Below, one piece after another: positions 4,481 through 36,733 of a stretch of DNA of 64,000 bases. The translations under genes were made by a program, and so were the position numbers. Source of the stretch: Patescibacteria group bacterium (lineage in GTDB: Bacteria > Patescibacteriota > Minisyncoccia > Phycocordibacterales > UBA9973); NCBI GenBank assembly GCA_038061925.1, contig JBBTYD010000002.1, positions 352 to 64,351 on the forward strand, written 5' to 3'. The first letter of the stretch is position 1; each line of letters starts with the position of its first letter. A model generated the notes under the pieces. That model did not search any database and was not told where the DNA came from. It saw only the letters and a program-made list of their open reading frames with translations.

Positions 4481-5587
4481 CTACTGAGCGTTCATCAGAG
4501 CTTTTGTTTTCTTTCCAACGAGACCGTCAGCCACTAGACCGTTATCCTTCTGCCATTGTTTTATGACTTTAATGGTCTTTGGACCCAGTTTACCGTCAAC
4601 TACCAAGCCAAGATTCAATTTATCATTCAAGAATCTTTGTAGTTCTTTAACCGGCTCGCCCTTGCTCCCATTTTTGAGAGTGGTGGCGCCGAAGTTATAC
4701 ACTCCGGTAGTGGTAGAAGAAGGCGCTGAAGTATTTCCTACACACGACGCTCCATTAGCCGTACTAAAGCCACTAATTCTATTTCCACATCCTGGAATTT
4801 GAGGACCCGTATTGTTAACACATAATACTCCAGTTGAAGTATTGTACTTATTTCCACCAGAACATCCTTGCGTAGGAGGAAGTGGAACCACTACCTCCGT
4901 TCCGCTTCCTGCAACAGTGATGGTGTCTGAGACAGCCATTGACATATTGCCGGCAGCATCCCGGAACTTAGCATAAACTGTCTTTACTCCATCTCCTGAG
5001 ACAAGCGTCCAAGTTTTGCTCGTCGCATAAGTCTCCCATAATGCTCCAGCAAAACCAGCGTCATTTGAGATAAGCATTTGAGTAGCGTCTGTGGCAGAGA
5101 GAGTCAAAGTTGAAGTAAGTACAGCACTTGTCGTTGCTCCAGCATTGATACTGACTGAAGTATTAGTAGGTGCTGTTGTATCTGCAGGTGGAGTAGCCGC
5201 ATATCCTCCGCCTCCGCTGCCGCCTCCTCCGCTAGTTATCGCTCCACAAGCAGTCGTAGAGGGAGTGACCGTCACATCTAAGCTAGCGGTAATAATGAGC
5301 TTGCTTTCTCCATTTGTACAAGTAGCGGTCAAGCTTCCGTTGTTAGTAAGAGTGTGCCTATTTGGAGAAATGAGAGTAAAGGTAGCTGATGCCGGAGTAA
5401 CTACCTGTAAGGTCGTAGTATCCAGCACGATTGATGTCGCTTCTGAACCGCTTAAAATGGTGTAATTATTGCCGTTGATTGTGATTACCACATCAGCGCT
5501 ATAAGTCAAAGCAAAAGCAGAATTGGCTACACCAACAAAGAGAGATAAGACAGCTATCAGTAAACCTAATTTTAATTTTTTAATCAT
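4481..5587 (-). CDS. Secreted protein with a C-terminal peptidoglycan-binding (PG_binding_1-like) domain
   Basis: Start taken at the internal Met (MIKKLKLGLLIAVLSLFVGVANSAFA signal peptide). C-terminal LKNGSKGEPVKELQRFLN...VDGKLGPKTIKVIKQWQKDNGLVADGLVGKKT matches the PG-binding repeat. Contains a GGGGSGGGG linker. Confidence 0.65.
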   Translation of the reverse strand: MIKKLKLGLLIAVLSLFVGVANSAFALTYSADVVITINGNNYTILSGSEATSIVLDTTTLQVVTPASATFTLISPNRHTLTNNGSLTATCTNGESKLIITASLDVTVTPSTTACGAITSGGGGSGGGGYAATPPADTTAPTNTSVSINAGATTSAVLTSTLTLSATDATQMLISNDAGFAGALWETYATSKTWTLVSGDGVKTVYAKFRDAAGNMSMAVSDTITVAGSGTEVVVPLPPTQGCSGGNKYNTSTGVLCVNNTGPQIPGCGNRISGFSTANGASCVGNTSAPSSTTTGVYNFGATTLKNGSKGEPVKELQRFLNDKLNLGLVVDGKLGPKTIKVIKQWQKDNGLVADGLVGKKTKALMNAQ

Positions 5588-5716
5588 TTTGTTTTTAAGA
5601 TTATATATACGGGATTCGACCTCCCGCCTACGCCGAGGCTTCGGCGAGGCAAGCAAGATAATCTCTAAATCCCGCATATTTTTTGTTAATAATTTAAGAC
5701 TTAAGAAACAAAATAA

Positions 5717-9667: not shown

Positions 9668-12600
9668 TTATGAAGGATTTACGTGTGAGAGACCGAAGAT
9701 GTCACCCTTGAAAACGTAGTCTGCTTCATTGTAATCAGCAGTACCAGCGTTAATACTGAATTCAAGGTTAGCGGCAGCGTCGTCGCTGAGCCATGGCTGT
9801 AGAGTGTTGCCATCGGTAGTAAGACCACCGGTGTTAACATAAATCGTTACCGTTTCACTACCGCCAGATGGAATAGTAAGTGTACTATCCGCAAAGAGAA
9901 CTGAAGCAGAGGTGCTACCAGTTGTTGCAGCCATGTTAACTGTGTCAAGCAGAGTTCCTTCAGCATCACGAAGCGTTACAGCGTCAGTTGCTGTTGTCAA
10001 TGTGCCTGAAATCTCAAAGTTAATCTTGAGCGTGTCATCACTGTCAAAAGTAACGTCTTTGTTACCCATATTTGTGATAAGAAGTCGGCCCGCGACATAG
10101 TTAGCATTTGCTCCAAGAACAGTTGATACTCCTGCGTTATTGAATTCAACTTTTGGATATGTCTCATAAGCGGTGTGTGTAGCGGCGTCAACACTTGTCT
10201 GTGTTGAGTCTACAGCAGAACCGGAAGCAAGACCCGTGGTATCAATATCACCAGCAGCGTCAACGGTAGTAATAAGAGTATCACCATTTACGAATCCTGT
10301 GCCATCAATATCATTCAAGATAACTTTAACAGTCACAAGCTTGTAATCACTAGCTGGAATGACGAGAGAGCCCGTAGATGGGAATACTTCTGCAAGACCT
10401 GCGCTAGGAACTACTGTTCCGAGAAGCGTAGAGCCATTGTAGAACTTGTAAGAAGCTACAACGTCATCGCCACTTGTACCATCATCCGTAATCTTAATAC
10501 TGTCAACATTCAAGTTTTCAGTATTATTGGCAGCCAGTCTGAATACAGCAACTGTTTGTTCAGCTGAAGTATCGAGAAGCAAAGCCGCGGTAGGAGATGA
10601 AGAGTCAACAGAAACCGTCAGCGTACCGCCGGCAGAAACAGTCATTACTTGACCTGCGCCTGAAGGAGTGAGAGTAACTGATGTTCCGGTAGTCTTACCA
10701 TTTGCGGTAACATCACCAGAGTCAGTATCTATACTGATAGCGAATGTATCACTTGTAGTAGCGCTAGCAGAAAGGTCGGCAATTATAGCGATATTTACCG
10801 AACCATTCTTGGTAACACTAACAATCGGATTAAGATTGAAGGTCAGAAGAGCGTCTCCATCAGCGGTGCCGGTGAATTGCTTTGTATCTCCAATTTTCGT
10901 TTCATACACATCGCCTCGAGTGCTCAAAGCTGACGTCAAGTCTGCCCAGATTTCAACATTATCCACGTCTTGCGCGCCGGAAGCAGTAGTTGTATCTAAT
11001 TCGTCCACAGTGTTCTCCACAACGATAGTGGAGACATTTACGTCTTCACCAGAGTTGGAAGCGGACAATGTAGCCGTAGCCCAGATGAAGTCTTGCTGAC
11101 CCTTGACGACACTGCGAGCCGCAGGAGTCGTGTTGGTGACAGCAGTAAGAGCAGCAGCTTGAACTACCATAGTATTACCGGAAACAGCTGAAGTAGGACT
11201 TGGAGTGACAGAGTCATTGGAAGTCATACCTTTCGCCACGATACCAGTTGAAGGAGCGTCAAGATCAATCTTGATAGTGTCGCCAAGGGAAACAGCAGAC
11301 GCAAGATTTGCGGTTACCTTAACTTTCGTCACACCAACAGGAAGGATAACAACATCCGTAAATGTCACATCTTCCGTGCCTGTGATTAAGTCTTTAGGAC
11401 CGGCAAGCAAAGCGCCTGTCGTAGCGTCAACCAACTTAACATTGGTGACTTCATCATAAGTCATCGTAGCTAAAGTGGTATCAACATTGATGGAAGTAAG
11501 CTTCATTGGTTCACCCAATACTTGGAAGTCAAATGTTGCCAAATGCACATCCGAACCGGAACTAATATTGCCGGCTGCCGGAGTGGAAGACGACTTAGTG
11601 ACGGTGAGCGAACCAGCTTGAATTGTCTGGTTGCTTCCGCCTTGACCGTTAGTCAAAGAGTTCGTAGGTGTGATGTAGAAACCGTAAGTATTACCTACAA
11701 CTTGAACACGGACATCAGAACCGTCAGTAAGGTCTGCGTTTACAGTCAAGCTTGAGCCGGAAACGATGTCAACACGAACTTCAAACCTTCGAGTCTCGCC
11801 TTTTTCAAGGACGATATTCAAATTATTGAAAGTTGCCAAACCGTTTGCGTCCCAAGAAGCGGCTGTGCCGAGAGTGACCGCTTTGGAAACATCAAAAAGC
11901 TCAATGTTTGCGATATCTGAAGAAGAAGCCGTACCTTGTCTTTCAACGGCAATCTGTTTGACTGTCACCGCTTCAACTGAACCGGATGTCAATTTGAATT
12001 TATTAAGAACTACGTCTGTAGCACCGCCGTCCGGCTGTGAGTCTGTAACTGTTCCATCTTCATCAGCAGTCAATACGCCGATATCAAGAAGCACGGTACC
12101 CATAAGGTTACCCTTAACTGGGAATGAACCGCCGACTGTGACATTTGCTATTACATCGGAAGCTACATCAATACCAAGAGCCACACTTTTACCACCAACT
12201 GTAGCGTTAACTATACCTGCGCGAATGTAAAAAGATTTTACAGTGTTAGCTGGGATAGTTAGAGCTGGAGAGAAGGTAATCTGTGCTTTATTGTTAGTGT
12301 TTAGACTTCCAGATGAAGAAACCTGCACCATGTCCTCATCAAGAATCTTGATGTTTTCAACATCAGAATTGATAGAGAGACCATAGCGAGTCACATACAA
12401 GCTGGTAATGGAAACAGCTGTAGGGCCAGCACTGATTGTGAACTTTGTAAAGTTCGCATTGCCAGCGTCTGGAACTGTGCCGGAAGCTGGGTTGTCAGCC
12501 GCAAGCGCAACTGCAGCAACTCCAGAAGACACAACTACACCCGTGGAACATGATGCGCCAGTCGTAGAACTAAATCCGGAAGCGGAAGTACAACCGGCTG

Positions 12601-13057
12601 GAAGTGTCGTGCTGACTACAGCCGTACATGCTTGACCCGTCGTAGGACTAAATCCGGAAGCGGAAGCACAACCGGCTGGAAATGTCGTGCTGACTACTAA
12701 AGCCGTACATGCTATACCAGTCGTAGAACTAAATCCGGAAGCGGAAGCACAACCGGCTGGAAATGTCGTGCTGACCGCGCCACCTGTAAGGGCAGTTCGG
12801 GACTTAGCACCGAATATTCCATCGGCTACTAAACCTACGCTAGACTGCCAAGCGACAACAGCAGCTTTGGTTATGTTGCCAAAGATTCCATCAACTGGAG
12901 AGACACCAAGAGCTGTTTGAAGTTCCGTTACTTGAGTGCCCTTTGAACCTTTTCTCAAAGTGGAAGTGATAGTTGCATCAGCTGAACTTGTTGTAACAAC
13001 AAAAGCTAGAAGCATTACCATCCCTAAAAGAAATTTTAATTTTAATAATTTACTCAT
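9668..13057 (-). CDS. Very large secreted cell-surface protein: signal peptide, PG-binding domain, Cys-containing tandem repeats, many Ig/Big-like beta domains
   Basis: 1129 aa. N-terminal signal, then LRKGSKGTQVTELQTALGV...VADGIFGAKSRTAL (PG_binding_1-like). Three tandem copies of VSTTFPAGCASASGFS(S/P)TTG(I/Q)ACTA. The rest is Thr/Ser/Val-rich beta-strand domains. Confidence 0.75.
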   Translation of the reverse strand: MSKLLKLKFLLGMVMLLAFVVTTSSADATITSTLRKGSKGTQVTELQTALGVSPVDGIFGNITKAAVVAWQSSVGLVADGIFGAKSRTALTGGAVSTTFPAGCASASGFSSTTGIACTALVVSTTFPAGCASASGFSPTTGQACTAVVSTTLPAGCTSASGFSSTTGASCSTGVVVSSGVAAVALAADNPASGTVPDAGNANFTKFTISAGPTAVSITSLYVTRYGLSINSDVENIKILDEDMVQVSSSGSLNTNNKAQITFSPALTIPANTVKSFYIRAGIVNATVGGKSVALGIDVASDVIANVTVGGSFPVKGNLMGTVLLDIGVLTADEDGTVTDSQPDGGATDVVLNKFKLTSGSVEAVTVKQIAVERQGTASSSDIANIELFDVSKAVTLGTAASWDANGLATFNNLNIVLEKGETRRFEVRVDIVSGSSLTVNADLTDGSDVRVQVVGNTYGFYITPTNSLTNGQGGSNQTIQAGSLTVTKSSSTPAAGNISSGSDVHLATFDFQVLGEPMKLTSINVDTTLATMTYDEVTNVKLVDATTGALLAGPKDLITGTEDVTFTDVVILPVGVTKVKVTANLASAVSLGDTIKIDLDAPSTGIVAKGMTSNDSVTPSPTSAVSGNTMVVQAAALTAVTNTTPAARSVVKGQQDFIWATATLSASNSGEDVNVSTIVVENTVDELDTTTASGAQDVDNVEIWADLTSALSTRGDVYETKIGDTKQFTGTADGDALLTFNLNPIVSVTKNGSVNIAIIADLSASATTSDTFAISIDTDSGDVTANGKTTGTSVTLTPSGAGQVMTVSAGGTLTVSVDSSSPTAALLLDTSAEQTVAVFRLAANNTENLNVDSIKITDDGTSGDDVVASYKFYNGSTLLGTVVPSAGLAEVFPSTGSLVIPASDYKLVTVKVILNDIDGTGFVNGDTLITTVDAAGDIDTTGLASGSAVDSTQTSVDAATHTAYETYPKVEFNNAGVSTVLGANANYVAGRLLITNMGNKDVTFDSDDTLKINFEISGTLTTATDAVTLRDAEGTLLDTVNMAATTGSTSASVLFADSTLTIPSGGSETVTIYVNTGGLTTDGNTLQPWLSDDAAANLEFSINAGTADYNEADYVFKGDIFGLSHVNPS
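12530..12795. repeat. Three tandem ~78-nt direct repeats inside CDS 9668..13057
   Basis: Near-identical units ...GTCGTAGAACTAAATCCGGAAGCGGAAGCACAACCGGCTGGAAATGTCGTGCTGAC... repeated three times; they encode the 26-aa Cys-containing repeat. Confidence 0.85.
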
Positions 13058-24990: not shown

Positions 24991-25422
24991 TTAAGGTAAT
25001 TGATTTTTAAATTTTTCTAAAATAATAGGAACTACTGAGTGCAAAGATGTTGGAAGTTTATCAAGTCGAAACCATCCTAGATTGTCAAATTTATGAGGCT
25101 CACCATTAATAACTTTAGATGGATCAACCAAAACTAAAAAGGTTATATTAATCCAATGCGTATTTTGAGCATCTAGATTTCTGAAGACATCCATATAACC
25201 TAAAAGATTATATGCCATTGGGTTAACACCGTACTCTTCTTTTAATTCTTTTTTAAAACAAGCTTCAACTGTTTCCCCAATTTCAAGACTACCACCACCA
25301 AAATCCCAAACGCCATGTTCGTCGCGACAATTTAGACCTCTTTTATTCATAAGATAATTTCCCTTACCATCATGACAAACATAACCAACGGAAACACCGA
25401 TATAATCAATCCCTTTTTGCAT
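24991..25422 (-). CDS. NUDIX hydrolase
   Basis: 143 aa. Nudix box GGSLEIGETVEACFKKELKEEYGV (Gx5Ex7REUxEExGU). Confidence 0.85.
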   Translation of the reverse strand: MQKGIDYIGVSVGYVCHDGKGNYLMNKRGLNCRDEHGVWDFGGGSLEIGETVEACFKKELKEEYGVNPMAYNLLGYMDVFRNLDAQNTHWINITFLVLVDPSKVINGEPHKFDNLGWFRLDKLPTSLHSVVPIILEKFKNQLP

Positions 25423-25467: not shown

Positions 25468-25500
25468 ATTGACTATTTTTATGCTATAGCATAATTATAG
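25468..25500. promoter_or_regulatory. Conserved 33-nt promoter/operator-like motif with the perfect palindrome ATGCTATAGCAT (copy 1)
   Basis: TTGACTATTTTTATGCTATAGCATAATTATAGT. On the minus strand it reads ACTATAAT...ATGCTATAGCAT...TAGTCAA, upstream of the NUDIX gene. Confidence 0.5.
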
Positions 25501-25517
25501 TTTAAACCTGACTGAAC

Positions 25518-26120
25518 TCATAAATTAAATTCCCTTCGAAGATTCTTGTCATTTTCGATGCTATCCGCAATTATATAAATTAAATCTCTACCTACTTTAA
25601 AATCTACTTTGAGCAACATTATCAAATCTTCACAATCATAAGGATAAACCCATACACTATCTTGTAAACGAACAAAACCTATCTGCCTTAAAGTATGTCG
25701 AACTCTATTTCTTAAACTTTTCCTTTCCTCTTTAATATCAAAAGTGAGAAGCCGCCATTTCCCATCCCATTTTCTGGGCTTTTTTATTTTGTAATCATTT
25801 ATTTCCAATTGTCGCAATTTTGCTTCGCCTTTCGAGGTCAGCTGTGCAAAATTTCTATTATCTACCTTCTTCCATAAAATTAATTCATTCTTTTTTAACC
25901 TCTCTAAAGAACGATTGAAAGAATATTTACGAAATTTACTTTTCATAAACTCCGGTTCTAATTTACTTAAAATTTTTGTCATTTTTGGGGCTATCAAAGC
26001 GACACCAAGTCCACCTATGACAAAAATTGCAGTCAAAATAGCTTTTTGAAGATTAGCCTTGCGAGTTCTTTTCTTTGATTCTTTTTCTAACTGTCCCATA
26101 TTATTTGTTGCTACTAACAT
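25518..26120 (-). CDS. Hypothetical: N-terminal TM plus winged helix plus Cas2/VapD-like (PaaX-like) core, paralog A
   Basis: 200 aa. ...FAQLTSKGEAKL...WDGKWRLLTFDIKEERKSLRNRVRHTLRQIGFVRLQDSVWVYPYD. It is homologous to CDS 30784..31257 (shared LTSKG, W..LL.FDI.E, LQ.SVW). Confidence 0.5.
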   Translation of the reverse strand: MLVATNNMGQLEKESKKRTRKANLQKAILTAIFVIGGLGVALIAPKMTKILSKLEPEFMKSKFRKYSFNRSLERLKKNELILWKKVDNRNFAQLTSKGEAKLRQLEINDYKIKKPRKWDGKWRLLTFDIKEERKSLRNRVRHTLRQIGFVRLQDSVWVYPYDCEDLIMLLKVDFKVGRDLIYIIADSIENDKNLRREFNL

Positions 26121-26152
26121 TGACTATAAGTATGCTATAGCATTATTATAGT
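26120..26152. promoter_or_regulatory. Conserved 33-nt promoter/operator-like motif with the palindrome ATGCTATAGCAT (copy 2)
   Basis: TTGACTATAAGTATGCTATAGCATTATTATAGT: 28 of 33 nt identical to copy 1. It abuts the start codon of paralog A. Confidence 0.5.
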
Positions 26153-26216
26153 AAATCCTGAAGAAAATTCAAGATTTTTCTTTAAATTTCTTACCTTCAA
26201 CGACAATGAATCTTTA

Positions 26217-27548
26217 TTAATTTATTTTCTCTTTTATATAATTTTTTAAATCAGAAACTTTTACTCTTTCTTGTTTCCCAGTATCTCTGTCCCGCACGGT
26301 CACTGAGTTATCAGCCAAAGTGTCAAAATCAACCACAATGCAAAATGGCGTGCCAATTTCATCTTGCCGGCGATAACGCTTGCCAATATTGCCATTGTCA
26401 TCCCAGGCGACACGACCAAATTCCGCTTTAAGCTGAGCAAACACTTTTGTGCTGGCGTATTCTACAAGTTTTGGTTTGTTTTTAAGCAAGGGCGAAACAG
26501 CACAGATTACGGGAGCAATATTGGGTTTAAATTTTAAATAGGAACGTATTTCCTCGTCTTTATTCTCTTCAGTGTAAACAGAAAGAATCAGAGCAAGAAC
26601 GGCCCGGTCGACACCAAAAGTCGGCTCAATGACATGTGGAATCATCTTTCCCCCTTTTTCTTCATCTATGTATTCGAGTTTATGATTTTTTAAGTCAAAA
26701 TCTGTCCTATAAGCAAGACCAAAAAGTTCTTTTTTCCCGAAAGGATAGTCAAATTCAAAATCAACTGTCCGGCTGGAATAATGCGCTCTATCTTCCTTGG
26801 CCACTTCCAGTTCGTGAACTTTTGCCATATCGAGTCCGATCTCTTCCATAAAGTCGAGCATCTCATCTTTCCAATATTCAAAATATTTTTCCCAATCTTC
26901 TTGTCTGATAAAATACTCAATCTCCATTTGTTCAAATTCTCGCTCTCGAAAAAGAAAATCTCTAGGCGTAATCTCATTCCTAAAGGCCTTACCGATTTGC
27001 GCCATCCCAAAGGGCAGTCTAGGGTGAAAAGCATCCACTGTGTTTTTAAAATTAACAAACATTCCCTGCGCTGTTTCCGGCCTTAGATAAACAGTGGCAA
27101 CCGAATCTTCCATTGCGCCTATTTGGGTGGTAAACATCATATTAAATTGTTTCTTTTCCCCCAATTTGCCTCCGCATTCGGCGCACTTTTTTGCATCTTC
27201 AATTTGATCAGCGCGAAACCGTCTCTGGCACTTTTCACACTCTACCAGCGGTTCAGAAAACCCGGCTACGTGCCCTGAAGCTTCCCAAACTTTTCTATTC
27301 ATTAAAATAGCCGTGTCTATTCCATACATATCTATCCTGGAATCTACGAATTTTTTCCACCAAAATTGCTTAATGTTATTCTTCAAAGTCAAACCAAAAT
27401 GCCCCCAATCATAGGTACCAGCTAGCCCACCATATATTTCCGAACCTTGGAAAATAAATCCACGCCTTTTACAAAGTGAAACTATTTTTTCCATTAAATC
27501 ATTCTTTGGATCTTTATTCATTTTTTTTTCTCGCATATAATTCAGCAA
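26217..27548 (-). CDS. glyQS: Glycyl-tRNA synthetase (class II, dimeric glyQS type)
   Basis: 443 aa. ...RRGFIFQGSEIYGGLAGTYDWGHFGLTLKNNIKQFWWKKFV... and class II motifs; a C-terminal anticodon-binding domain. Confidence 0.9.
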   Translation of the reverse strand: MLNYMREKKMNKDPKNDLMEKIVSLCKRRGFIFQGSEIYGGLAGTYDWGHFGLTLKNNIKQFWWKKFVDSRIDMYGIDTAILMNRKVWEASGHVAGFSEPLVECEKCQRRFRADQIEDAKKCAECGGKLGEKKQFNMMFTTQIGAMEDSVATVYLRPETAQGMFVNFKNTVDAFHPRLPFGMAQIGKAFRNEITPRDFLFREREFEQMEIEYFIRQEDWEKYFEYWKDEMLDFMEEIGLDMAKVHELEVAKEDRAHYSSRTVDFEFDYPFGKKELFGLAYRTDFDLKNHKLEYIDEEKGGKMIPHVIEPTFGVDRAVLALILSVYTEENKDEEIRSYLKFKPNIAPVICAVSPLLKNKPKLVEYASTKVFAQLKAEFGRVAWDDNGNIGKRYRRQDEIGTPFCIVVDFDTLADNSVTVRDRDTGKQERVKVSDLKNYIKEKIN

Positions 27549-27566
27549 AATTACCCTCCGGATTAA

Positions 27567-29573
27567 TTAATTAACTACCGTGCCCCCAGCCGGCGGGAAT
27601 TGAGGGTCATTGTCTAACTGTGTGCGAAGCGACGTCTTGCTTAATTTCACATCTACATTAGCAAAATCATCATGCCCCGTCAAAACTGCATCATTTAAAA
27701 GAATTGGAATAGTGCCAACTTGAGAAAGTGAAGGAGTAAAGACAATTTGAAAGGAAACGCTTTTGTTTGTGGTAGTGATACCAGCACCTTTCGGGATACT
27801 GCCTATATTCCAAATTATTTCTTTGGTGGAAGAATTATAAGTTAAATCTTCGTCCGAGGGCACTATTAGTCCGACAAAACTTACCCAGGAAGGAATGGAA
27901 GAATGGATAACCGCTTTTGAAATATTATTTGCTGTATTGGAAAGAGACCAGACTATTGTATAAGTTGTTTGTTTCTCAACTTTTGGAGGTATTGAGCCGG
28001 TGTTAGTAAAAAATCCAGAATAATAAAGAACCTTGGACGTAAATCCAACATCAGAAATAATCCGGACTATTCCTGAGTCAGAATTATTTAAATCAGCTGT
28101 GGCATAGCCAGAAACAAGTTGCTTGCCGGAAATAGAGATATTTATATTGATAGAAGGGTCAGAAAGCATCCCGCCTGCAGCCGAGAATAAAGAAAGTGGA
28201 GAAATAGAAAAACTTACAGACCCAGAATCGCCTGGGTTTGCTTCTTTAAAATTATTTACGGAATTTTTATCCCAAGTTATTATATCTTTTAAAGAATCAT
28301 AAAAACCTTGTTGGGCACTGACTGTTTTACGATCAACCGCATTTCCGGAGATTTTTGCCTGAATCGACAAATCATTCACTTTTGTATCTAAATTATTTAT
28401 CCACTTTATTTCGCCACGGATGGGGGTTTTTATGTCTGTCGCGTACTCTCTCCCTGATACGCCATTTATAAAAAGCTTTACCTCGATGAAAGGCTTTTTT
28501 ATTGTAACGGTATAGGGCAGAGAATTAAAAACAACATCAATCATAGACTTATCGGCGCTAGATTGCGACCCGCTAAAGATGTGGAAACTTTTTTCTTCTC
28601 CGTCAACAACATCAATCATTTTACCGGTCAGAGATATATTACGCTCCGCGCCAGAGGCAAGATCTCCTAAATTCCAGGTATTATTGCCAAGAGAGGGAGC
28701 TGGAATAGATGATGCAAATTGAAACCCAACTGGATAATCAAGCTTAAGCAGTATTCTGGAAACTGGTCTTGTAGCGTTAAGTGTCACTTTAATATTGAGA
28801 GTGATATTTTGATTGGGACTTACGGTCAGAGGCGCATTGACAAAAAGATCCAGAGGTGTAGAATTTATGGTAACATTGTAAGATTTTTCTTTTACAAAAA
28901 TAGCATTTGATCCCTCGACTCGATACTCTAGAGAAATTTTTACAGGACGCACGGATCCTGGTTGCCCGAAAAGCACTAATTTTATATTTTCATTGCGTAC
29001 TGCCCCAGCCGGAATCGTACCTAAAGACACACGACTCGTTTCAGTTCTTGCCGATGAATCTGGGCCTGCACTAGAATCCAGAATATCCGAAGATCCCTTT
29101 GGATATTTAATAATAAAATCTGCTAAGTCGAGCGCAGAACTATTTTTATTTGTAACACCAACAACAAGTGACAAGTCTTCTCCACCAGCCGTGAAATTAT
29201 TTCCAAGTATCGAAATATCAATATTATCATTAGACACAGTGTTTCCTTTAGAAAAGAATACATAGGAAGCATATCCCAAAGTGAGGATAAAAAAAACTAA
29301 TGAAAATATAAAAAAATTCTTAAAAATAGAAGTCTTCATAAAAAATTTATCTTGATTGGAAAAAGGGTCAGCTTCAACTTTCTTGCCACTTTCCCATGTA
29401 TCCGGCACGTCTTCTCTATTTAAACGTGTAAAATTATCTTGGTGTTCTATTTTTGTTTGATAATTTTTACTGAAAAGCTTGCCTTTGAGTTCTTCTATTC
29501 TGTTTAGTTTATCCCTATCATTTAATGACATTCTAGAATTGTACCACCTAAAAGAAAAAATCAGAAGAAGCAT
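27567..29573 (-). CDS. Large hypothetical membrane-anchored extracytoplasmic protein
   Basis: 668 aa. One TM segment (FFIFSLVFFILTLGYASYVFF) after an about 80-aa cytoplasmic N-terminus, then an Asn/Ser/Thr-rich beta-rich ectodomain. The start is possibly at the internal Met (MSLNDRD). Confidence 0.5.
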   Translation of the reverse strand: MLLLIFSFRWYNSRMSLNDRDKLNRIEELKGKLFSKNYQTKIEHQDNFTRLNREDVPDTWESGKKVEADPFSNQDKFFMKTSIFKNFFIFSLVFFILTLGYASYVFFSKGNTVSNDNIDISILGNNFTAGGEDLSLVVGVTNKNSSALDLADFIIKYPKGSSDILDSSAGPDSSARTETSRVSLGTIPAGAVRNENIKLVLFGQPGSVRPVKISLEYRVEGSNAIFVKEKSYNVTINSTPLDLFVNAPLTVSPNQNITLNIKVTLNATRPVSRILLKLDYPVGFQFASSIPAPSLGNNTWNLGDLASGAERNISLTGKMIDVVDGEEKSFHIFSGSQSSADKSMIDVVFNSLPYTVTIKKPFIEVKLFINGVSGREYATDIKTPIRGEIKWINNLDTKVNDLSIQAKISGNAVDRKTVSAQQGFYDSLKDIITWDKNSVNNFKEANPGDSGSVSFSISPLSLFSAAGGMLSDPSININISISGKQLVSGYATADLNNSDSGIVRIISDVGFTSKVLYYSGFFTNTGSIPPKVEKQTTYTIVWSLSNTANNISKAVIHSSIPSWVSFVGLIVPSDEDLTYNSSTKEIIWNIGSIPKGAGITTTNKSVSFQIVFTPSLSQVGTIPILLNDAVLTGHDDFANVDVKLSKTSLRTQLDNDPQFPPAGGTVVN

Positions 29574-29601
29574 CTAATTTCTTGTAATTTAATATCTCCA
29601 T

Positions 29602-30183
29602 CTATAAATGTGTCTCTTTAAGCGCCTTGTTTATTTGGCGCAATACCTTGGTCCTATCTCTGGAAACTTCAAACACTAGATTTTCCTCAAACGGAGATTT
29701 GATAAGATTTTGGAGTATTTCATTTTCGCCTATATATCCCAAATTATTTAGTATACGCAAAATGATAATTGTTTCAATATTAAGCAAGTCTTCTTTTGTT
29801 ACGCTTTTTTCTAAAATAAATAGACCTTGGAGTAAATCAACAAACAGGGCTTCATTCGGTTCAATGCCGGCCAGTAGACGTTTTAATAAGCGCGCAATAT
29901 TCGCAAAAATTTTAAAAGTTTCCGGTGTTTTAATAATTTGTTCTAACACATTTGTTTTTGATGCATTCGTCACCCGAAAGATATTCCTACCTTGCACGAA
30001 ATCAATTTTAAGATATGCAAAATCTTGCAAAACAAAACGCAATTTTGAAGACATCTTCCGCACCCCCGAGGCCGTGGCCGTGATCATACCCAAATTACGA
30101 GTAAAAATAGAATAATATTTTCCGGCTTCGCCAAAATTACGACTGTCTAATATTATTCCTTCTGTGTGAAAAATGTGGTGCAT
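29602..30183 (-). CDS. recO: DNA repair protein RecO (short)
   Basis: 193 aa. N-terminal OB-fold pattern M..TEGIILDSRNFGEAGKYYSIFTRNLGMITATASGVRK...LQDFAYLKIDFVQG matches RecO. Confidence 0.7.
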   Translation of the reverse strand: MHHIFHTEGIILDSRNFGEAGKYYSIFTRNLGMITATASGVRKMSSKLRFVLQDFAYLKIDFVQGRNIFRVTNASKTNVLEQIIKTPETFKIFANIARLLKRLLAGIEPNEALFVDLLQGLFILEKSVTKEDLLNIETIIILRILNNLGYIGENEILQNLIKSPFEENLVFEVSRDRTKVLRQINKALKETHL

Positions 30184-30188
30184 GAGAA

Positions 30189-30695
30189 TTACAATGAATG
30201 ACCTATCGGATTTGCAATGGGTTTTGTTAAACTTTTTATATCATTGGTATTAATCAGAAAAATACCAAGTTTGCCCTCAAGAGTATACAGAGTCACGTGG
30301 GTAGGTGGATATTCTACCTCTAATCCATATTTTTTATTTATAATTTCAAAGAATTTATCCAGATTTAACACTTTACACATAACGACTACTGTTTTTAGAT
30401 CATTTTTTTCAGCAAATCTAAATTCCTCAGTATAATTTAAAATATCTATATCATTTTTTTCTACAAAATCACAAAAATCTGTCACTACTAAATTTTTAAA
30501 GTCAGGAATTGAGATCTTGTATTTTTTTATAATTTCACTAATACACACCAAACTAACATGAAAAGAGGACTTTAATGATAATGTATTGTTATCTATTCCC
30601 ACTTCTTTCGGTAAATTTTCTAATGAAACTGGTAATCCAATAGTATTGGTTGCTGAAATTGTATATTTATTGCCACAAATAAATTTTCTTTCCAT
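30189..30695 (-). CDS. 2H phosphoesterase superfamily protein (LigT/ThpR-like 2',3'-cyclic phosphodiesterase candidate)
   Basis: 168 aa with two H-x-[ST]-x motifs about 88 residues apart (SFHVSLV ... PTHVTLY), the hallmark of 2H phosphoesterases. The size matches LigT (~180 aa). Confidence 0.5.
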   Translation of the reverse strand: MERKFICGNKYTISATNTIGLPVSLENLPKEVGIDNNTLSLKSSFHVSLVCISEIIKKYKISIPDFKNLVVTDFCDFVEKNDIDILNYTEEFRFAEKNDLKTVVVMCKVLNLDKFFEIINKKYGLEVEYPPTHVTLYTLEGKLGIFLINTNDIKSLTKPIANPIGHSL

Positions 30696-30732
30696 TCTTC
30701 TATTTTATCACAAAATTAAGAATTAAAGAAAA

Positions 30733-30776
30733 CAACCAAAGGTACTATTGTCTGCGATAGCGAAGTTTAGTACCTT
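30733..30776 (-). terminator. Hairpin with a conserved GCGATAGCG-containing loop (copy A)
   Basis: Minus strand GAAAGGTACTaaacttCGCTATCGCagacaatAGTACCTTT: 9-bp stem, downstream of paralog B and upstream of the 2H gene. Confidence 0.5.
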
Positions 30777-30783
30777 TCTCAGA

Positions 30784-31257
30784 TTAACTAATTCTTGAAA
30801 TCTTAAGCATTTTCAAATGGTCTTGAAGCTTTATTTTCTTAATATAATCAAGAAACTCTTTTGGTAACGGAGAAGGTCCTCGCCAGACGCTTTTCTGAAT
30901 TAGAACATAGTTAAATTTTTTGAGATGCCACCTAAGCCATTCCCTCTCAGCTTTTTTAGCCTCTGGTATATCAAACATAATTAGCAAATTTTTAGAGTCA
31001 TTTTTTAAGAAAGGAGAATTGAATTGGATTAAAGAATCATATTTTTCTGCAAGATACTTTTTTCCTTTGGAGGTCAAAAACCATGCAGAACCACTCTTGG
31101 CGATATATTTTTTCTTTCTTAATTGGCTGATTCCAGATTTAAGAGATCCATATTTATACAAAGATAATTTTGGCAAACCAAATAAATTCACATGCGTACC
31201 TTTGTAAGGGATGGTAGTATGACTTAATTCTTCTAAAATGTTCGATATGATAGACAT
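30784..31257 (-). CDS. Hypothetical: winged helix plus Cas2/VapD-like (PaaX-like) core, paralog B
   Basis: 157 aa. ...WFLTSKGKKYL...NLLIMFDIPEAKKAEREWLRWHLKKFNYVLIQKSVWRGP. It is homologous to CDS 25518..26120. Confidence 0.5.
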   Translation of the reverse strand: MSIISNILEELSHTTIPYKGTHVNLFGLPKLSLYKYGSLKSGISQLRKKKYIAKSGSAWFLTSKGKKYLAEKYDSLIQFNSPFLKNDSKNLLIMFDIPEAKKAEREWLRWHLKKFNYVLIQKSVWRGPSPLPKEFLDYIKKIKLQDHLKMLKISRIS

Positions 31258-31282
31258 AAATATATTATATAGAAAAAATAAA

Positions 31283-31325
31283 AAGGTAGCAAACTCAGCG
31301 ATAGCGTATTTCAGTACCTTTCTAT
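31283..31325 (-). terminator. Hairpin with a conserved GCGATAGCG-containing loop (copy B)
   Basis: Minus strand GAAAGGTACTgaaataCGCTATCGCtgagtttgcTACCTTTTT, downstream of ileS and upstream of paralog B, followed by TATAAT. Confidence 0.5.
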
Positions 31326-31437: not shown

Positions 31438-34400
31438 TTATTTTTCAATTTTTACCTTAAAAACCAATTCATCTATTTTAATTTCTTTGCCATCATTTTT
31501 TTTAAATTCTAGCTCAGATGCCAGAACAGTTTTTTTTAGATCAGCTTCAAATTTTTTTATCAATTTTTTACCCAAGTCATTTGTTTCAAAAGTGAGTGAA
31601 ACAATATCGTTTGGCGTCAATCCAATTTCTTTCCTCATATCTTGTAAAGCCCGCGCCAATTCGCGATAGTTCCCTTCTTGTTTTAATTCCGGAGTTATGT
31701 TTATGTCAAGAACAACTTCGGCTTTGATATTTTTATTCTGTTTTACTTCTTTTACGTTCAATTCATCTTTTAAAAGCTTAATATATTCTTCTCCTAAGTC
31801 AAAATTTTTAACTTCCAATTTATTTAGGGGCTGACGAACTTGAATTTTTTCTTTTTGACGAGCTTCAAGCCCAAAAGAAGCAATAGCGCGAACTATTCTC
31901 ATTTCATCTATGATTTTTCTATTTATTTTCCCCGCTTCTGGCCATTTTCCCAAATGCACGCTTTCTGCATCTTTCTCGTTTTTCAATTTCAACCAGATAT
32001 CTTCCGCCGTGAATGGTGCAAAAGGAGCCATAATTTTAGCCACAGTTTTTAAAATAAAATATAAAGTTTGTTTGGCCTCGCCCGGAGATCTACGGCCGAG
32101 AGCTTTTTTGCCCTCTTCCTTGATTCGCTCACGAGAACGACGCAAGTACCAGATCGAAAGATCTTCTATAAAATTTTCAATCGGGCGAGAAGCTTCATTT
32201 ATATCGTATGTTTCCATGCCATCTGTAACTTCACTTATTAGTTGATTCAGGCGCGCCAAAATCCACTGATCGAGCATATTAGAACTGAACTTTGAATTAC
32301 CAGTCGCAATTTCTAGCGAACGATCACGGTACAATTCATAAAAAGAAACCACATTACCAAGTCGTCCTATTATTTTGCTCGAAATTTCTTGGACCGATTT
32401 TTCTGAAAAATTCACATCTTCTCCTTTCATTAACGGACTAGTCATTAAATAAATACGCAATGCATCAACCCCGTATTTGTCTATAAATATCCACGGATCC
32501 GGATAGTTCTTTTTTGATTTTGATATTTTTTGACCATCCGAAGCAAGGAGGGTGCCAGTCGTGACAACATTGTCAAATGGCGCGTGCTTAAAAAGAACAG
32601 TGGAAAGAACATGAGTATAGTAAAACCACGTTCTGGTCTGAGCAATATATTCAGCCACGAAACCAGCCGGAAAATTATTTTTCTGCCAATCCGGATTCTC
32701 AAATGGATAATGATCTTGAGCAAAAGGCATAGAGCCAGATTCGAACCAAGAATCAAGAACTTCCGGCACTCTCTTCATTTCGGATTGGCAATGGCAGATA
32801 AGTTTCAGGTTGTCGATATAGGGTCGATGATAATCAAGTTCATAATCGGAATTATGTGGAATAGGAATAAAATTAACGACTCTATATTCCGCATTTGCAA
32901 AAAGATGAAATTGGCCAGACACTCCTTTCTCAACTTCTTCTGAATGTCTGAATAATCCGCCAGTCATAGAAATAGACTCATTGACATTATATCCATTCAA
33001 TATAGAAAAAAGCATCCAAAGCGGAGCCCCGTGTGAAATTATTAGTATATTTTTGTTCTGGTATTTTTCTTCAAATTCATAAAAGATATTTCCGACTCTC
33101 TTTTTCACATCAAGCAATGATTCTCCGCCATGAATCGGATTTAAAAACCTTTCTCTGGCGTTTTTAAACATACTCTTATACTCATCCCAAGGTTTGCCTT
33201 CAAAATCTCCCGCATCTAATTCTCCCAATCTTTTATCAAAAATCACTTGCTCATCTTTTAACCCCAAGCTTTCTTTTAAAACATGGAACGTCTCGCGAGT
33301 ACGCATAAAAGGCGAAACAAAAACAAGATCAATATTTTTATTTTTTAATTCTTTGGCAGTTTTTTGCACTTGTTCCTCTCCATTTTTCGTCAAATGGTCG
33401 ATATTTTCCACCAGAGAAGAGACGACGCCATGCAGATTGCTTTTGACATTACTTTCTGCTTCCCCATGGCGCATCACAAAATATTTATTATTGGACTTTT
33501 TTGTTTTGGCTTTCAGATCGGAAAGAGAACCGATAAAAATTTTCTCCGCGCATTTTAGACACTTCCAAACAGGCAAGGGTGAAGCCCAGTAACGGTTTCT
33601 GGAGACATTCCAATCAGGCGCATTTTCAACTATATTTTTAAATCTTCCTTCTTTTAAATGTGGAGGAACCCAGCGCATTGCATTCGCTTTTTGAATTATT
33701 TGTTTCTTGACTTTTTGAATATTTATAAACCAAGAAGACAACGCATAATAAATAATTGGCGTGTCACAACGCATACAATGTGGATATGAATGGATTATTT
33801 TTTCTTTCTCAAAATAGGCTCCTGTTTTTTGTAAATATTTAATCACTTCAATGTCCGCCCGCAGATGAGCGTCTTTGTCTTCCGGCGTATCTTTCGGTTT
33901 TACTTTCAAGCCGGCAAAATCCGTCACTTCCTTTTTAAATCTACCTGTCTCATCCACGTGAATAATCCAAGGGAGGTCATTCTGCTTGGCGAGATTCATA
34001 TCGTCTTCTCCGAAAGCGGACGCTTCGTGCGCCAGACCCGTGCCTTTTTCGGTAGTCACAAAGTCCGCATGCCAAACTTTCCAAATATTTTTTTTATTCG
34101 GCAGATCAATATTTTGATAATATGGGAAAACCGGTTTGTATTTTTTGCCCAATAAATCTTTTCCTTTAACTTCACCCAATATAGAATATTCCTTATCTTT
34201 CAACACGCTTTGCAATGTTTCTTGGGCCAGAATCAACATATTGTTCCCTATTTTTATTTTTACATAAGAAATATCTTTATTGACCGCAATCGCGGTATTC
34301 CCGGGCAAAGTCCATGGAGTCGTAGTCCACGTAAGAAAGTATGTACCGGGTTCATCTTCCAACTCAAATTTTACATAAACAGAAATATCCGTAATATCTT

Positions 34401-35004
34401 TATAACTGTTATCCATCGCTATTTCAGAGTTCGCTATGGGTGTTTCACACCTCGCGCAATAAGCCAAAACCTTCACCCCCTCATAAATAAGACCTTTTTT
34501 ATTTAATTCACTAAATGCCCACCAAACGGATTCAATAAAAGTATTGTCCATCGTTTTGTAACCACCGCGAAAATCCACCCATCTTCCGATGCGCTCTACC
34601 CCGCTTTCCCATTTTTTGTCATATTGTAAAACTTTACTGCGCGCGTGTTCCACAAAAAGATCTATGCCAAACTTTTCTATCTCCTGATGTCCAGCAATAT
34701 TCAAATCTTTTTCAACAATATTCTCAATCGGCAAACCATGACAATCCCAACCCCATTTTCTAAGAACACGATAGCCTCTCATGGTTTGATAGCGCGCGAT
34801 CGCATCTTTGGCTGTACTACCTAAAATATGTCCATAATGCATGAGCCCGGTGGCAAAAGGCGGGCCATCATAAAAAACATAGTTGCCTTTCGGAGCCTTT
34901 TTAATCAAAGACTTTTCAAAAATTTTATTTTCTTTCCAAAACTTCAAAACAGCTTCTTCGCGAAGAGCCACCTCTGACTTTTTTGTTGTACTTTTATTTT
35001 CCAT
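31438..35004 (-). CDS. ileS: Isoleucyl-tRNA synthetase with an embedded histidine-phosphatase (PGAM-like) domain
   Basis: Class I core (PPFATGLMHYGHIL, CP1 editing domain, KISKSKKN = KMSKS). A continuous in-frame ~180-aa segment KYFVMRHGEAESN...SPFMRTRETF...ILIISHGAPLWML (RHG, R and SHG catalytic motifs of histidine phosphatases) sits between the zinc-knuckle cysteine pairs CLKC and CHC. The start is taken at Met-10 (MENKSTTKK), 5 nt after the argS stop. Confidence 0.9.
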   Translation of the reverse strand: MENKSTTKKSEVALREEAVLKFWKENKIFEKSLIKKAPKGNYVFYDGPPFATGLMHYGHILGSTAKDAIARYQTMRGYRVLRKWGWDCHGLPIENIVEKDLNIAGHQEIEKFGIDLFVEHARSKVLQYDKKWESGVERIGRWVDFRGGYKTMDNTFIESVWWAFSELNKKGLIYEGVKVLAYCARCETPIANSEIAMDNSYKDITDISVYVKFELEDEPGTYFLTWTTTPWTLPGNTAIAVNKDISYVKIKIGNNMLILAQETLQSVLKDKEYSILGEVKGKDLLGKKYKPVFPYYQNIDLPNKKNIWKVWHADFVTTEKGTGLAHEASAFGEDDMNLAKQNDLPWIIHVDETGRFKKEVTDFAGLKVKPKDTPEDKDAHLRADIEVIKYLQKTGAYFEKEKIIHSYPHCMRCDTPIIYYALSSWFINIQKVKKQIIQKANAMRWVPPHLKEGRFKNIVENAPDWNVSRNRYWASPLPVWKCLKCAEKIFIGSLSDLKAKTKKSNNKYFVMRHGEAESNVKSNLHGVVSSLVENIDHLTKNGEEQVQKTAKELKNKNIDLVFVSPFMRTRETFHVLKESLGLKDEQVIFDKRLGELDAGDFEGKPWDEYKSMFKNARERFLNPIHGGESLLDVKKRVGNIFYEFEEKYQNKNILIISHGAPLWMLFSILNGYNVNESISMTGGLFRHSEEVEKGVSGQFHLFANAEYRVVNFIPIPHNSDYELDYHRPYIDNLKLICHCQSEMKRVPEVLDSWFESGSMPFAQDHYPFENPDWQKNNFPAGFVAEYIAQTRTWFYYTHVLSTVLFKHAPFDNVVTTGTLLASDGQKISKSKKNYPDPWIFIDKYGVDALRIYLMTSPLMKGEDVNFSEKSVQEISSKIIGRLGNVVSFYELYRDRSLEIATGNSKFSSNMLDQWILARLNQLISEVTDGMETYDINEASRPIENFIEDLSIWYLRRSRERIKEEGKKALGRRSPGEAKQTLYFILKTVAKIMAPFAPFTAEDIWLKLKNEKDAESVHLGKWPEAGKINRKIIDEMRIVRAIASFGLEARQKEKIQVRQPLNKLEVKNFDLGEEYIKLLKDELNVKEVKQNKNIKAEVVLDINITPELKQEGNYRELARALQDMRKEIGLTPNDIVSLTFETNDLGKKLIKKFEADLKKTVLASELEFKKNDGKEIKIDELVFKVKIEK
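32962..33489 (-). other. Histidine phosphatase (phosphoglycerate-mutase-like) domain inserted within ileS
   Basis: Residues ~515-690 of the IleRS ORF: RHGEAESN ... RTRET ... SHGAPL. Confidence 0.8.
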
Positions 35005-35008
35005 TCTA

Positions 35009-36733
35009 TTACATCTTCTCCGGGACAACAATACCGAGCAGATGGAGGCCTGTTTTCATCACGAAAGTAAAGGCATAGGTTAAAGCCACTTTGTAGGCTG
35101 AAGTTTTATCTCTCTTGTCCACGATGGATATATTGCCATAAAAACTATTAAACGCGCGGGCCACTTCTATCAAATAATTCGCAATGTAATGCGGTTCATA
35201 TTCTCTCGCCGATCGTAACACGATTTCAGGAAATCGGTATAATAATTTTTCTACTTCAAAAATTTCAGGCGGGAAAGCCTGAGGGTCTGGAAGGATATCT
35301 TCCTTTTTCGCTTTTTCCAAAACGGAATTTGCGCGAACGTAAGAATATTGCAGATACGGGCCAGAATCTCCTTCAAAAGAAATAGATTCTTCAAAATTAT
35401 AAATAATGTCTCCACCAGTTGCTTGCTTGAGCACTGAATATTTTATGGCCGAGACGCCGACATCGGAAGCAATTTTCTTTCTTTCTTTTTCAGAAAAATT
35501 ACGCTCTTTTATTTTTTCTCCGATTAGTGAAATAGTGTCTCGAATGAGCGACTCTCCAGTCACCGTGTTGCCTTTGCGAGAACTCATTTTACCATCAGCC
35601 AACTTCATCATCCCATGGGTTATATGAAACATTTTTTTCTCATGCTCAGGATGAATTAAGGAAATAACTTTGGCAACCACTTTCATATAATCCGCTTGTT
35701 CATTGGCAGTAACAACAATTGATAAATTCATATCCGGGTCTGTATTAAATTTCTCTTCTGTTAATCCCAGCTCTTTAGTCTCATAAGTGGGCAAACCCTC
35801 CGAAGTGATAAAAACTCGAGTGTGTAGCTTCGGATCATGTTTTTCAGCCTTAAATACAATAGCCCCGTCTGACTTTTCAAAAACTTTGCCTAAATTATCT
35901 TTAACAATCCTCTCCCCAATCGGCGCCATCTGGCTCTCTAGGAAATAGAATTCGAATTTTGTACCGAGAACTCTATATAAATCTTCGAAGGCTTTCATTG
36001 TCACCTTGAAACCCCAATTATATATTTCATTTATTTTTTTGTCAGTTTTATCATAAATTTTTTTATTTATCTTATCTATTTCTTTTTTTGCCACAAGCTG
36101 ACTGACCGAATTACTTTCATAAGCTTGGGCGCCTTGCGTGTAAGCTTTTCCTATGTTGGCCGCTTGGATAATAGAAGAGCTTTTTTTGTCTTGTAATTTT
36201 TTATCTTTCAAAAGACTATATATGGCTTTCGCCACATGAAGCCCAACATCGCCCTGATAATTGGCCCGAGACACTTCCGCTCCTGAATGTTCTAAGATTC
36301 TCGCCATTGATTCACCAATCGCGTTTGTCATCAAATGCCCAATATGAAAAGGTTTAAAAGGATTCGGGTCGGTATATTCAATCATTATTTTCTGGTCAAT
36401 CAAAACATCATTTTTCCCAACATTTTCTCCCTTATTCAAAATTTCTTCAACATTTTCAGCAAAAAATTTACGGGCTAAAAAAAAATTTATAAAACCTGGG
36501 TCGGCCAGATCTATTTTTCCAATTTCTTTTGACAATTTTTTTTCGAGTTCTCTTTTTATTTTCTCCGCCAGTTCTTTTGGATTTATTTTTGATTTTTTAG
36601 CACAAACCATAGCCACATTCGTGGAGTAATCTCCATTTTTAAAATCTTCCGGATGTTCCACCACAAAATTAGATTCTTCTATTTTCAGATTTCTAAGAAT
36701 TTTTTTTATTAAATTTTTTATTTTTTCTGGCAT
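35009..36733 (-). CDS. argS: Arginyl-tRNA synthetase
   Basis: 574 aa. N-terminal Arg_tRNA_synt_N-like domain, HIGHLMTNAIGESMARILE (HIGH), KMSSRKGNTV (KMSKS-like), and a C-terminal DALR anticodon-binding domain. Confidence 0.9.
   Translation of the reverse strand: MPEKIKNLIKKILRNLKIEESNFVVEHPEDFKNGDYSTNVAMVCAKKSKINPKELAEKIKRELEKKLSKEIGKIDLADPGFINFFLARKFFAENVEEILNKGENVGKNDVLIDQKIMIEYTDPNPFKPFHIGHLMTNAIGESMARILEHSGAEVSRANYQGDVGLHVAKAIYSLLKDKKLQDKKSSSIIQAANIGKAYTQGAQAYESNSVSQLVAKKEIDKINKKIYDKTDKKINEIYNWGFKVTMKAFEDLYRVLGTKFEFYFLESQMAPIGERIVKDNLGKVFEKSDGAIVFKAEKHDPKLHTRVFITSEGLPTYETKELGLTEEKFNTDPDMNLSIVVTANEQADYMKVVAKVISLIHPEHEKKMFHITHGMMKLADGKMSSRKGNTVTGESLIRDTISLIGEKIKERNFSEKERKKIASDVGVSAIKYSVLKQATGGDIIYNFEESISFEGDSGPYLQYSYVRANSVLEKAKKEDILPDPQAFPPEIFEVEKLLYRFPEIVLRSAREYEPHYIANYLIEVARAFNSFYGNISIVDKRDKTSAYKVALTYAFTFVMKTGLHLLGIVVPEKM

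Follow-up and report, generated by a model that had tools for sequence, protein, structure and literature searches.

What do two small, related genes encode if each of them is enclosed by a matching pair of palindromes? The question is raised by a stretch of 64,000 nucleotides (nt) from a Patescibacteria group bacterium (assembly GCA_038061925.1, contig JBBTYD010000002.1). The whole 64-kb stretch is hereafter called the window, and the two genes, both on its minus strand, are called paralog A and paralog B. The conserved entity is a self-contained unit composed of a site, a gene and a second site. In the interpretation favoured here, to which a probability of about 0.72 is given, A and B would be self-repressing, dimeric, reduced versions of the repressor PaaX (mini-PaaX), each gene being enclosed by two operators cognate to its own product. 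The comparisons on which this interpretation is based were made with genomic loci of relatives, labelled L001 and so on, and residues are numbered as in A.

The kinship of the two proteins and their PaaX-like build at a much smaller size, a winged helix-turn-helix (wHTH) followed by a Cas2-like domain, had been proposed in a sequence-only reading of this DNA, which also asked whether two motifs in the second domain are invariant. All three points have been borne out. In BLASTP, A and B are 37% identical over 68 amino acids (E 2e-7), and each paralog is matched by the hidden Markov model of the other one's family. No third family member besides A and B was found in the 64-kb window. The open reading frame (ORF) of A spans positions 25518-26120. 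Around 120 homologs of A start at MGQLEKE, and the likely start is therefore 26099, not 26120, which makes 25518-26099 the likely coding sequence. The resulting protein has 193 residues, with the wHTH at about residues 38-87 and the Cas2-like domain at about residues 113-178. B (30784-31257) has 157 residues and consists of a wHTH plus a Cas2-like domain with the motif IQKSVW. Homologs are numerous: 1790 of about 193 residues were collected for A and 614 of 157-161 residues for B. Judged by the names of these homologs, the source bacterium belongs to the Nomurabacteria/Paceibacterota group of Patescibacteria. Clustered at 50% identity, the family comprises 5,067 clusters at E <=1e-3 and 2,548 at E <=1e-10.

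Profile searches place both proteins with PaaX. The Pfam model of the central Cas2-like domain of PaaX (PF20803, PaaX_M; gathering cut-off 24 bits) is exceeded by A with 70.5 bits (1.3e-19) and by B with 45.6 bits (7.4e-12). B also matches Pfam HTH_45 (2e-3), and the Pfam model of the PaaX N-terminus matches neither A nor B. The NCBIfam equivalog model of full PaaX, TIGR02277, aligns residues 70-164 of A to model positions 39-130, with a score of 44.5 that is far under its cut-off of 264.55. As for Cas2 itself, the scores against Pfam PF09827 (23.1 for A and 19.2 for B) are both below the cut-off of 23.8. Against TIGR01573 (cas2), A reaches 24.8 for a cut-off of 24.5, and B reaches 20.5.

The structural comparison leads to the same family. 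In the AlphaFold2 model of A, a three-helix bundle with a wing (residues 38-87) is followed by a beta-alpha-beta-beta-alpha-beta domain. A Foldseek search of the PDB with this model returned E. coli PaaX (8A39) at the top, aligned over 191 columns, then the PaaX-like structures 3KFW and 3L09, and then Cas2 structures. In a sequence search of the PDB, the matches were likewise E. coli PaaX 8A39 and a Cas2. In the alignment of either family (27 sequences of A type, 26 of B type), the Asp of the FDI motif is invariant or almost so, as are Q, S, V and W of Q-x-S-V-W. Both proteins end after the Cas2-like fold and do not have the C-terminal PaaX effector domain, which binds phenylacetyl-CoA. Most likely, A and B are truncated PaaX-type DNA-binding regulators in which a winged helix is fused to a Cas2-like dimerisation domain. 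The hydrophobic stretch at the N-terminus of A, AILTAIFVIGGLGVALIAP, was also considered as a membrane helix and rejected for its likeness to the N-terminus of PaaX; it lies in a low-confidence part of the model and is judged to be helix 1 of a PaaX-type wHTH.

Each gene is bracketed by two copies of a palindrome of its own. At A, a motif of 34 nt is found at 25468-25501 and again at 26119-26152, the copies being 88% identical. The upstream copy, a putative operator, extends to a 38-nt palindrome at 26119-26156 (halves TTTACTATAAtaATGCTA and TAGCATacTTATAGTCAA) with its exact core at 26132-26143, and its centre is located 38 nt before the ATG. The same palindrome is present in the orthologous loci L001-L003 and L008-L014. 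The downstream putative operator (25468-25501, core 25481-25492) contains a TATAAT of its own at 25494-25499; its centre is 31 nt past the stop codon of A and about 65 nt before the ATG of the NUDIX gene that follows. The exact core, ATGCTATAGCAT, occurs twice in the 64 kb, both times at the flanks of A, and was for this reason rejected as a generic promoter motif of this genome. At B, the putative operators are located upstream at 31282-31321 (AAAGGTACtgaaatACGCTATCGCtgagtttGCTACCTTT, centre 44 nt before the ATG, followed by a T-run) and downstream at 30738-30777 (AAAGGTACtaaactTCGCTATCGCagacaataGTACCTTT, centre 26 nt after the stop codon). They lie in a 56-nt direct repeat whose copies are 75% identical, and the pattern AAAGGTAC-N-CGCTATCGC has two matches at B vs none in 100 shuffles. 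The upstream site of B may double as a terminator of ileS transcription. No extra operator copy with up to five mismatches was found in the 64-kb window. The repeated motif at A and the palindromes at B, both described from the letters alone, are thus real and far beyond chance, and they are also present in orthologous loci.

The arrangement is conserved well beyond this genome. The A-type set consisted of 80 loci (622 kb) from species-representative genomes, and the B-type set of 85 loci. In 60 of 85 loci, the two flanks of one A-type gene have an exact word of 12 nt or more in common. In the controls, such a word was shared in 14 of 400 comparisons between different loci and in 2 of 82 comparisons with far-downstream sequence. 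With a palindrome defined as 36 nt with at least 13 of 18 possible pairs (95th percentile of the background, 12), one lies upstream of 71 of 89 A-type genes and downstream of 67 of 88, and 58 of 88 genes have one on each side. Several sites that were apparently missing were recovered as sub-threshold partners. Of the 85 B-type loci, 78 have the site upstream, 80 have it downstream and 74 have it on both sides. The first four B loci compared all carry CTGCTAT(C/A)GCAG palindromes on both sides (4/4). The general plan, common to almost all family members in Patescibacteria, is a GC-N4-GC centre with outer boxes at ±11-18. The palindrome sequence is specific to the locus, but the two copies of a locus match each other, down to identical 40-mers in L040 and L071. 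Among the first orthologous A loci, symmetric changes were seen (ATGCTATAGCAT vs ACGCTATAGCGT). A third palindrome copy was detected in 3 of the 80 A-type loci (L035 at ~1011, L044 at ~6197, L066 at ~897 and ~989). It is placed some 400 nt ahead of the upstream operator, some 1.6 kb past the gene, or in tandem downstream, and may represent a regulon member or a duplication.

The second copy is located 13-60 bp past the stop codon and does not depend on what comes next. It is kept in A orthologs whether a NUDIX or an M16 peptidase gene follows, and it is present in front of any next gene, convergent genes included (L016, L020, L023, L024, L029, L035, L040, L075 and L086). Unlike that of the upstream site, its spacing from the next start codon shows no preferred value. 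In several genomes, two or three A-type paralogs occur, each with a different palindrome. Paralogs that share a genome or contig (L104 and L158 on one 93-kb contig; L017, L021 and L024 in MHRQ01) differ in their outer boxes and in their recognition-helix residues. The specificities of such co-resident paralogs look as if they were kept orthogonal.

The sites at B had been described in the sequence-only reading as hairpins; their properties are rather those of operators in double-stranded DNA (dsDNA). Palindrome symmetry is high at ±2-5 and at ±11-18, and it drops to the chance level at ±8-10 in B. The distance between the two symmetric boxes is close to one helical turn, as would be expected if contacts were made on one face of duplex DNA. 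Among the palindrome mismatches, G-T is not in excess over A-C. Moreover, where the centre is asymmetric (GGTC/GACC and GATA/TATC), the two sites of a locus often carry it in opposite orientations, which is neutral for dsDNA but alters an RNA loop. The symmetry profiles and mismatch types agree with a protein footprint on dsDNA and not with an RNA hairpin, and the hairpin reading was rejected on these two grounds together with the flips in orientation. The two sites of a locus are about 1.0 identical at ±14-16, and in B their identity falls to the chance level in the spacer and beyond ±19. Since the spacer identity in B is at chance, selection on contact positions keeps the copies alike, not recent duplication; recent duplication or gene conversion as the source of site likeness was therefore rejected for B.

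Covariation between site positions and protein columns in 77 A-type loci provides a modular picture of recognition. Residues 56, 59, 63, 74 and 76, in the recognition helix and the wing, track the outer site positions -17, -16 and -14. For instance, R56 and E59 go with TACAC, Y59 with T at -17, and R63 with C at -14 in 34 of 35 cases. A second set of residues lies in the Cas2-like domain. Residue 147, at the tip of the beta2-beta3 hairpin and the x of Q-x-S-V-W, tracks the central 4 bp: D is paired with TATA (42 of 43), N with GGTC/GACC (13 of 20), K with GATA (4 of 5) and Q with GGCC (2 of 3). Residue 131, and likewise residue 127, in helix 1 of the same domain tracks position ±5 (±4 for residue 127), N131 being found with T at -5 in 11 of 11 cases.

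The pairing between residue 147 and the centre recurs among clades with different recognition helices. On a neighbour-joining tree, at least 21 changes of the centre and at least 20 changes of residue 147 are needed, and the combined character requires only 25. Of 38 independent nearest pairs, 22 agree in both characters, 10 differ in both and 6 differ in only one; among all columns, column 147 shows the highest concordance with a change of the centre. In B-type proteins, the position equivalent to 147 is K or R, and the centre is GATA at 110 sites. The proteins of the window obey the same code: A has D147 and N131 with AT-GC-TATA-GC-AT, and B has K122 with GC-GATA-GC. As the residue at the hairpin tip co-varies with specific base pairs, sequence-specific reading is implied, not contacts with the backbone, and the Cas2-like hairpin may well touch the centre of the operator.

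The position of the upstream site relative to the promoter is compatible with repression. The predicted promoter of A (26145-26172) has a -35 TTGAAT at 26167-26172, a 16-nt spacer and a -10 TATAAT at 26145-26150 that sits within the left arm of the upstream operator. The predicted promoter of B (31264-31292) has a -35 TTGCTA at 31287-31292 within the right arm of the operator, a 17-nt spacer and a -10 TATAAT at 31264-31269; L004 and L005 share this layout. Both promoters have 10 of 12 consensus matches. The predicted -10 of B is only 6 nt from the ATG, which implies a leaderless mRNA. Among A-type loci, the distance from the operator centre to the ATG has a sharp peak at 17 nt (24 of 71 loci). 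In these loci, TAnnnT is found at +6 to +11 from the centre and the ATG at +18; the mRNA is therefore expected to be leaderless and the operator to span the whole core promoter. The distances of other A-type loci group at 35-39 and 45-52 nt; in these, a separate -10 element precedes the ATG by 6-7 nt. In the 17-nt subgroup, the word TGTCAA(T/C) is conserved just upstream of the palindrome, about 22-28 nt left of the centre (L016, L017, L020, L021, L042, L044, L051 and L073), at a spacing that does not fit a -35 of the predicted -10.

Put together, the domain architecture and fold, the site-gene-site arrangement and its conservation, and the modular covariation of protein and site suggest the following mechanism. 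A homodimer would bind the palindrome of about 36 bp, with the Cas2-like ferredoxin-fold domain as dimerisation module. Each winged helix would read an outer box at ±11-18, and the Cas2-like domain would read the GC-N4-GC centre with its helix 1 and with the tip of its beta2-beta3 hairpin. Binding at the copy that overlaps the promoter would exclude RNA polymerase and lead to negative autoregulation, as described for PaaX at its Px promoter. The promoter-covering layout fits repression by exclusion of RNA polymerase, and binding as a dimer, with repression rather than activation as the outcome, is what we infer from these comparisons. The second copy could serve in cooperative looping, as a roadblock or terminator, or in the control of read-through into downstream genes.

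Several points weigh against this account of A and B. It is hard to see what physiological output a repressor would have that apparently regulates itself alone. A pure DNA-binding role does not explain why the Cas2-type Asp is invariant, and with it the Glu of FDIxE, both of which true PaaX has lost, and the purpose of the downstream operator is not explained by the model either. The covariation is partly confounded by phylogeny, especially in B. The AlphaFold2 model of A has a predicted local distance difference test score of 73, which is a moderate confidence, and the promoters were predicted by a scan for a sigma-70-type consensus that may not transfer to Patescibacteria. Furthermore, no helical phasing of the inter-site distance was detected, a result that is uninformative for loops of 600-750 bp.

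The alternative closest to self-repression is that A and B are local regulators of the genes next to them, A repressing the NUDIX-M16 operon through its downstream operator and B controlling the gene for a protein of the 2H superfamily. The downstream operator of A, with its own TATAAT, indeed precedes the NUDIX gene, the same site precedes the M16 peptidase gene in L001 and L002, and 39 of the 77 A-type loci in which both neighbours were called have both on the strand of the gene. On a wider scale, the downstream site is equally present before convergent genes and keeps no preferred distance to the next start codon, and the neighbours are heterogeneous across 84 A-type and 84 B-type loci. In 80 genomes, the neighbours of A-type genes (74 downstream and 73 upstream) cover 115 and 83 Pfam families, respectively. 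Among them are NUDIX proteins 3 times downstream and 5 times upstream and aminoacyl-tRNA synthetases 3 times upstream. Around the orthologs of A, the order glyQS-A-M16 is kept, but the place of the NUDIX gene varies: it lies downstream of A in L003 and upstream in L001, and it is missing in L002. As for B, a position between ileS and recO is limited to close relatives, and its distant orthologs adjoin uvrD/pheS or tsaD. A 2H gene follows the B-type gene in 1 of 84 other loci, and the 2H family is also found as ileS-2H-recO without B or in unrelated contexts. A functional linkage to aminoacyl-tRNA synthetase, NUDIX or 2H genes, as considered in the sequence-only reading, was thus rejected because of this heterogeneity. 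That reading had also offered PaaX-like, autoregulated repressors of the neighbouring hydrolases; the autoregulation is favoured here, and the control of neighbouring hydrolases does not generalise. Local regulation is accordingly regarded as an unlikely, though tenable, explanation.

With the lack of linkage, the cleave-and-heal or toxin-like module proposed in the same place, which had been made to depend in advance on such linkage, also loses its footing. In its general form, the palindromes would be RNA hairpins bound or cut by a Cas2/VapD-like RNase, possibly in cooperation with the 2H or NUDIX protein. In keeping with this, the Asp typical of Cas2 does not vary, RNA folding of the sites gives hairpins of -10 to -15 kcal/mol, with a U-run behind the upstream hairpin of B, and the neighbour of B (30189-30695), with two H-x-T/S motifs on a 2H fold, is a genuine member of the 2H superfamily, as had been recognised from its motifs. 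This RNA-level explanation is nevertheless improbable. It is opposed by the bipartite symmetry with its chance-level interval, by the lack of a G-U bias and by the reversal of asymmetric centres between the sites of one locus. Moreover, the upstream site overlaps a -35 or -10 element and is therefore not fully transcribed in the mRNA of the gene itself at many loci. A conserved antitoxin-like partner gene, as for a VapD-type module, was not found among the neighbours, which are heterogeneous on both sides, and models of defence systems gave weak Cas2 similarity to the proteins and nothing further. A nuclease acting on DNA is given a similarly low probability: the Cas2-fold domain, which retains the catalytic-type Asp/Glu and whose hairpin tip seems to read the central 4 bp, may nick or cleave the palindrome centres, which would turn the site-gene-site unit into an autonomous mobile, excisable or recombinogenic cassette. 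If this were true, the family would possibly be a living relative of the DNA-binding Cas2 ancestor that was recruited by CRISPR adaptation. There is also only a slim chance that the units are selfish elements, with the palindromes as their ends, at which the Cas2-like nuclease would act to move or maintain the unit. Such a cassette would account for the presence or absence of the whole B unit between ileS and 2H/recO in otherwise syntenic genomes, for the self-contained nature of the units, for the several paralogs per genome and for the invariant acidic Cas2 motif. Against it, orthologs hold their position across 53-83% protein identity, near-identical copies within one genome were not seen among the loci fetched, and the two sites are alike at the contact boxes alone and not through recent duplication. 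A phage or mobile origin was rejected because a search of 2.9 million viral contigs gave just one weak match, so that the family is practically missing from them. Finally, that A and B are bona fide CRISPR Cas2 proteins, as public annotation names several homologs, can practically be dismissed. The C-terminal half does have the Cas2 fold, and A passes TIGR01573 by 0.3 bits, which explains the public name 'CRISPR-associated endonuclease Cas2'. Yet the Pfam Cas2 model stays below its cut-off for both proteins and PaaX_M is far above, a wHTH is fused to the N-terminus, no CRISPR array was found in the 64-kb window, Cas1 is not among the recurrent A-type neighbours, and genomes have multiple paralogs, each with its own palindrome.

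The surroundings of the two genes can be described briefly. The region of A and B is a low-GC stretch (31-39%) with all genes on the minus strand. In the order of transcription, argS is the most 5', followed by ileS (31438-35031), B, a gene for the 2H-superfamily protein of 168 residues (30189-30695), recO, a gene for a DUF11 protein of 668 residues, glyQS (26217-27548), A, the NUDIX gene (24991-25422), and then genes for an M16 peptidase and an AI-2E permease, metG, tatD and rpsF. The order was largely as first described, with the addition of the DUF11 gene between recO and glyQS. No paa genes are present in this region, and paa families are likewise not found among the recurrent A-type neighbours. 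The ileS product (1197 residues) has a His_Phos_1 domain (residues 518-685) inserted in its catalytic domain and a C-terminal DUF5915. The same insertion is found in IleS of the related loci L002, L003, L004, L005 and L169, and IleS of L002 has an additional weak match to an HD domain. The NUDIX protein matches the PADLOC candidate-system model PDC-S07 (E 6e-9) in the Nudix box region only, probably as a result of generic NUDIX similarity. In L005, where B is present and the 2H gene is absent, an ORF for 47 residues (5552-5695) lies between the downstream operator of B and recO. With a TATAAT 6 nt before its ATG, it may be either a small leaderless gene or the remnant of one that was larger. 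Elsewhere in the window, there are two tandem repeats, both probably inside coding sequence: one at 12558-12775 with a unit of 81 nt (2.7 copies, 92% matches) and one at 53244-53380 with a unit of 72 nt (1.9 copies). A scan of the 64 kb for RNA families and tRNA genes returned zero tRNA genes and only a partial bacterial 23S rRNA gene, whose 5' end lies at 1-502 on the minus strand and runs off the window edge.

If A and B are mini-PaaX regulators, a large family of transcription factors is gained for an uncultivated group with tiny genomes whose regulation is little known. For most members fetched, the putative cognate operator can be read straight from the sequence, and the recognition model takes the form of a simple residue-to-base code, from winged helix to outer box and from hairpin tip to centre. 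The results also expose a systematic annotation error, as many mini-PaaX proteins of Patescibacteria are named Cas2 and no tie to CRISPR-Cas was seen here. A regulator enclosed by two operators of its own, with mutually distinct paralogs in one genome, would be an unusual circuit design. Moreover, if a Cas2 fold reads DNA sequence, this would be relevant to the question of how Cas2 acquired its role of measuring and holding duplex DNA in CRISPR adaptation.

Among known systems, two lend a domain to the comparison with A and B. In CRISPR adaptation, the Cas2 homodimer lies along duplex DNA in Cas1-Cas2 complexes. With Cas2 (PF09827/TIGR01573) and VapD, A and B share the ferredoxin-like fold, the Asp after strand 1 and the Q-x-S-V-(F/W) motif. 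The CRISPR protein is a stand-alone protein of about 90-100 residues, whereas A and B are fused to a wHTH, score under the Pfam Cas2 cut-off and are encoded away from cas1 and CRISPR arrays. The closer relative is PaaX of E. coli W (PF07848, PF20803 and PF08223), the phenylacetyl-CoA-responsive repressor of the paa operons, in which a wHTH is likewise followed by a Cas2-like middle domain. PaaX binds the 39-bp operator TGATTC-N27-GAATCA and, by hindering RNA polymerase, represses its own Px promoter (PMC9493321). A review from 2022 states that a structure of a PaaX-DNA complex was not available at that time. No paper joining PaaX with Cas2, Cas2-like proteins or Patescibacteria was found among the papers searched. 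The long bipartite palindrome is a further likeness, the putative operators defined here by comparison having 36-40 bp and boxes at ±11-18. In contrast to full-length PaaX (about 280-316 residues), A and B have 157-193 residues without PaaX_C and retain the Cas2-type Asp that is lost in E. coli PaaX. Further differences are that paa genes are not nearby, that the gene is bracketed by two operators, and that several paralogs with diversified specificities exist. In the placing of their sites, the units resemble the looping repressors lambda CI (OL-OR), 186 CI (FL/FR) and GalR (OE/OI), whose sites also flank the regulated unit with one of them over the promoter. The difference is that the second site is located here just past the stop codon of the regulator, so that a loop would enclose the regulator gene alone.

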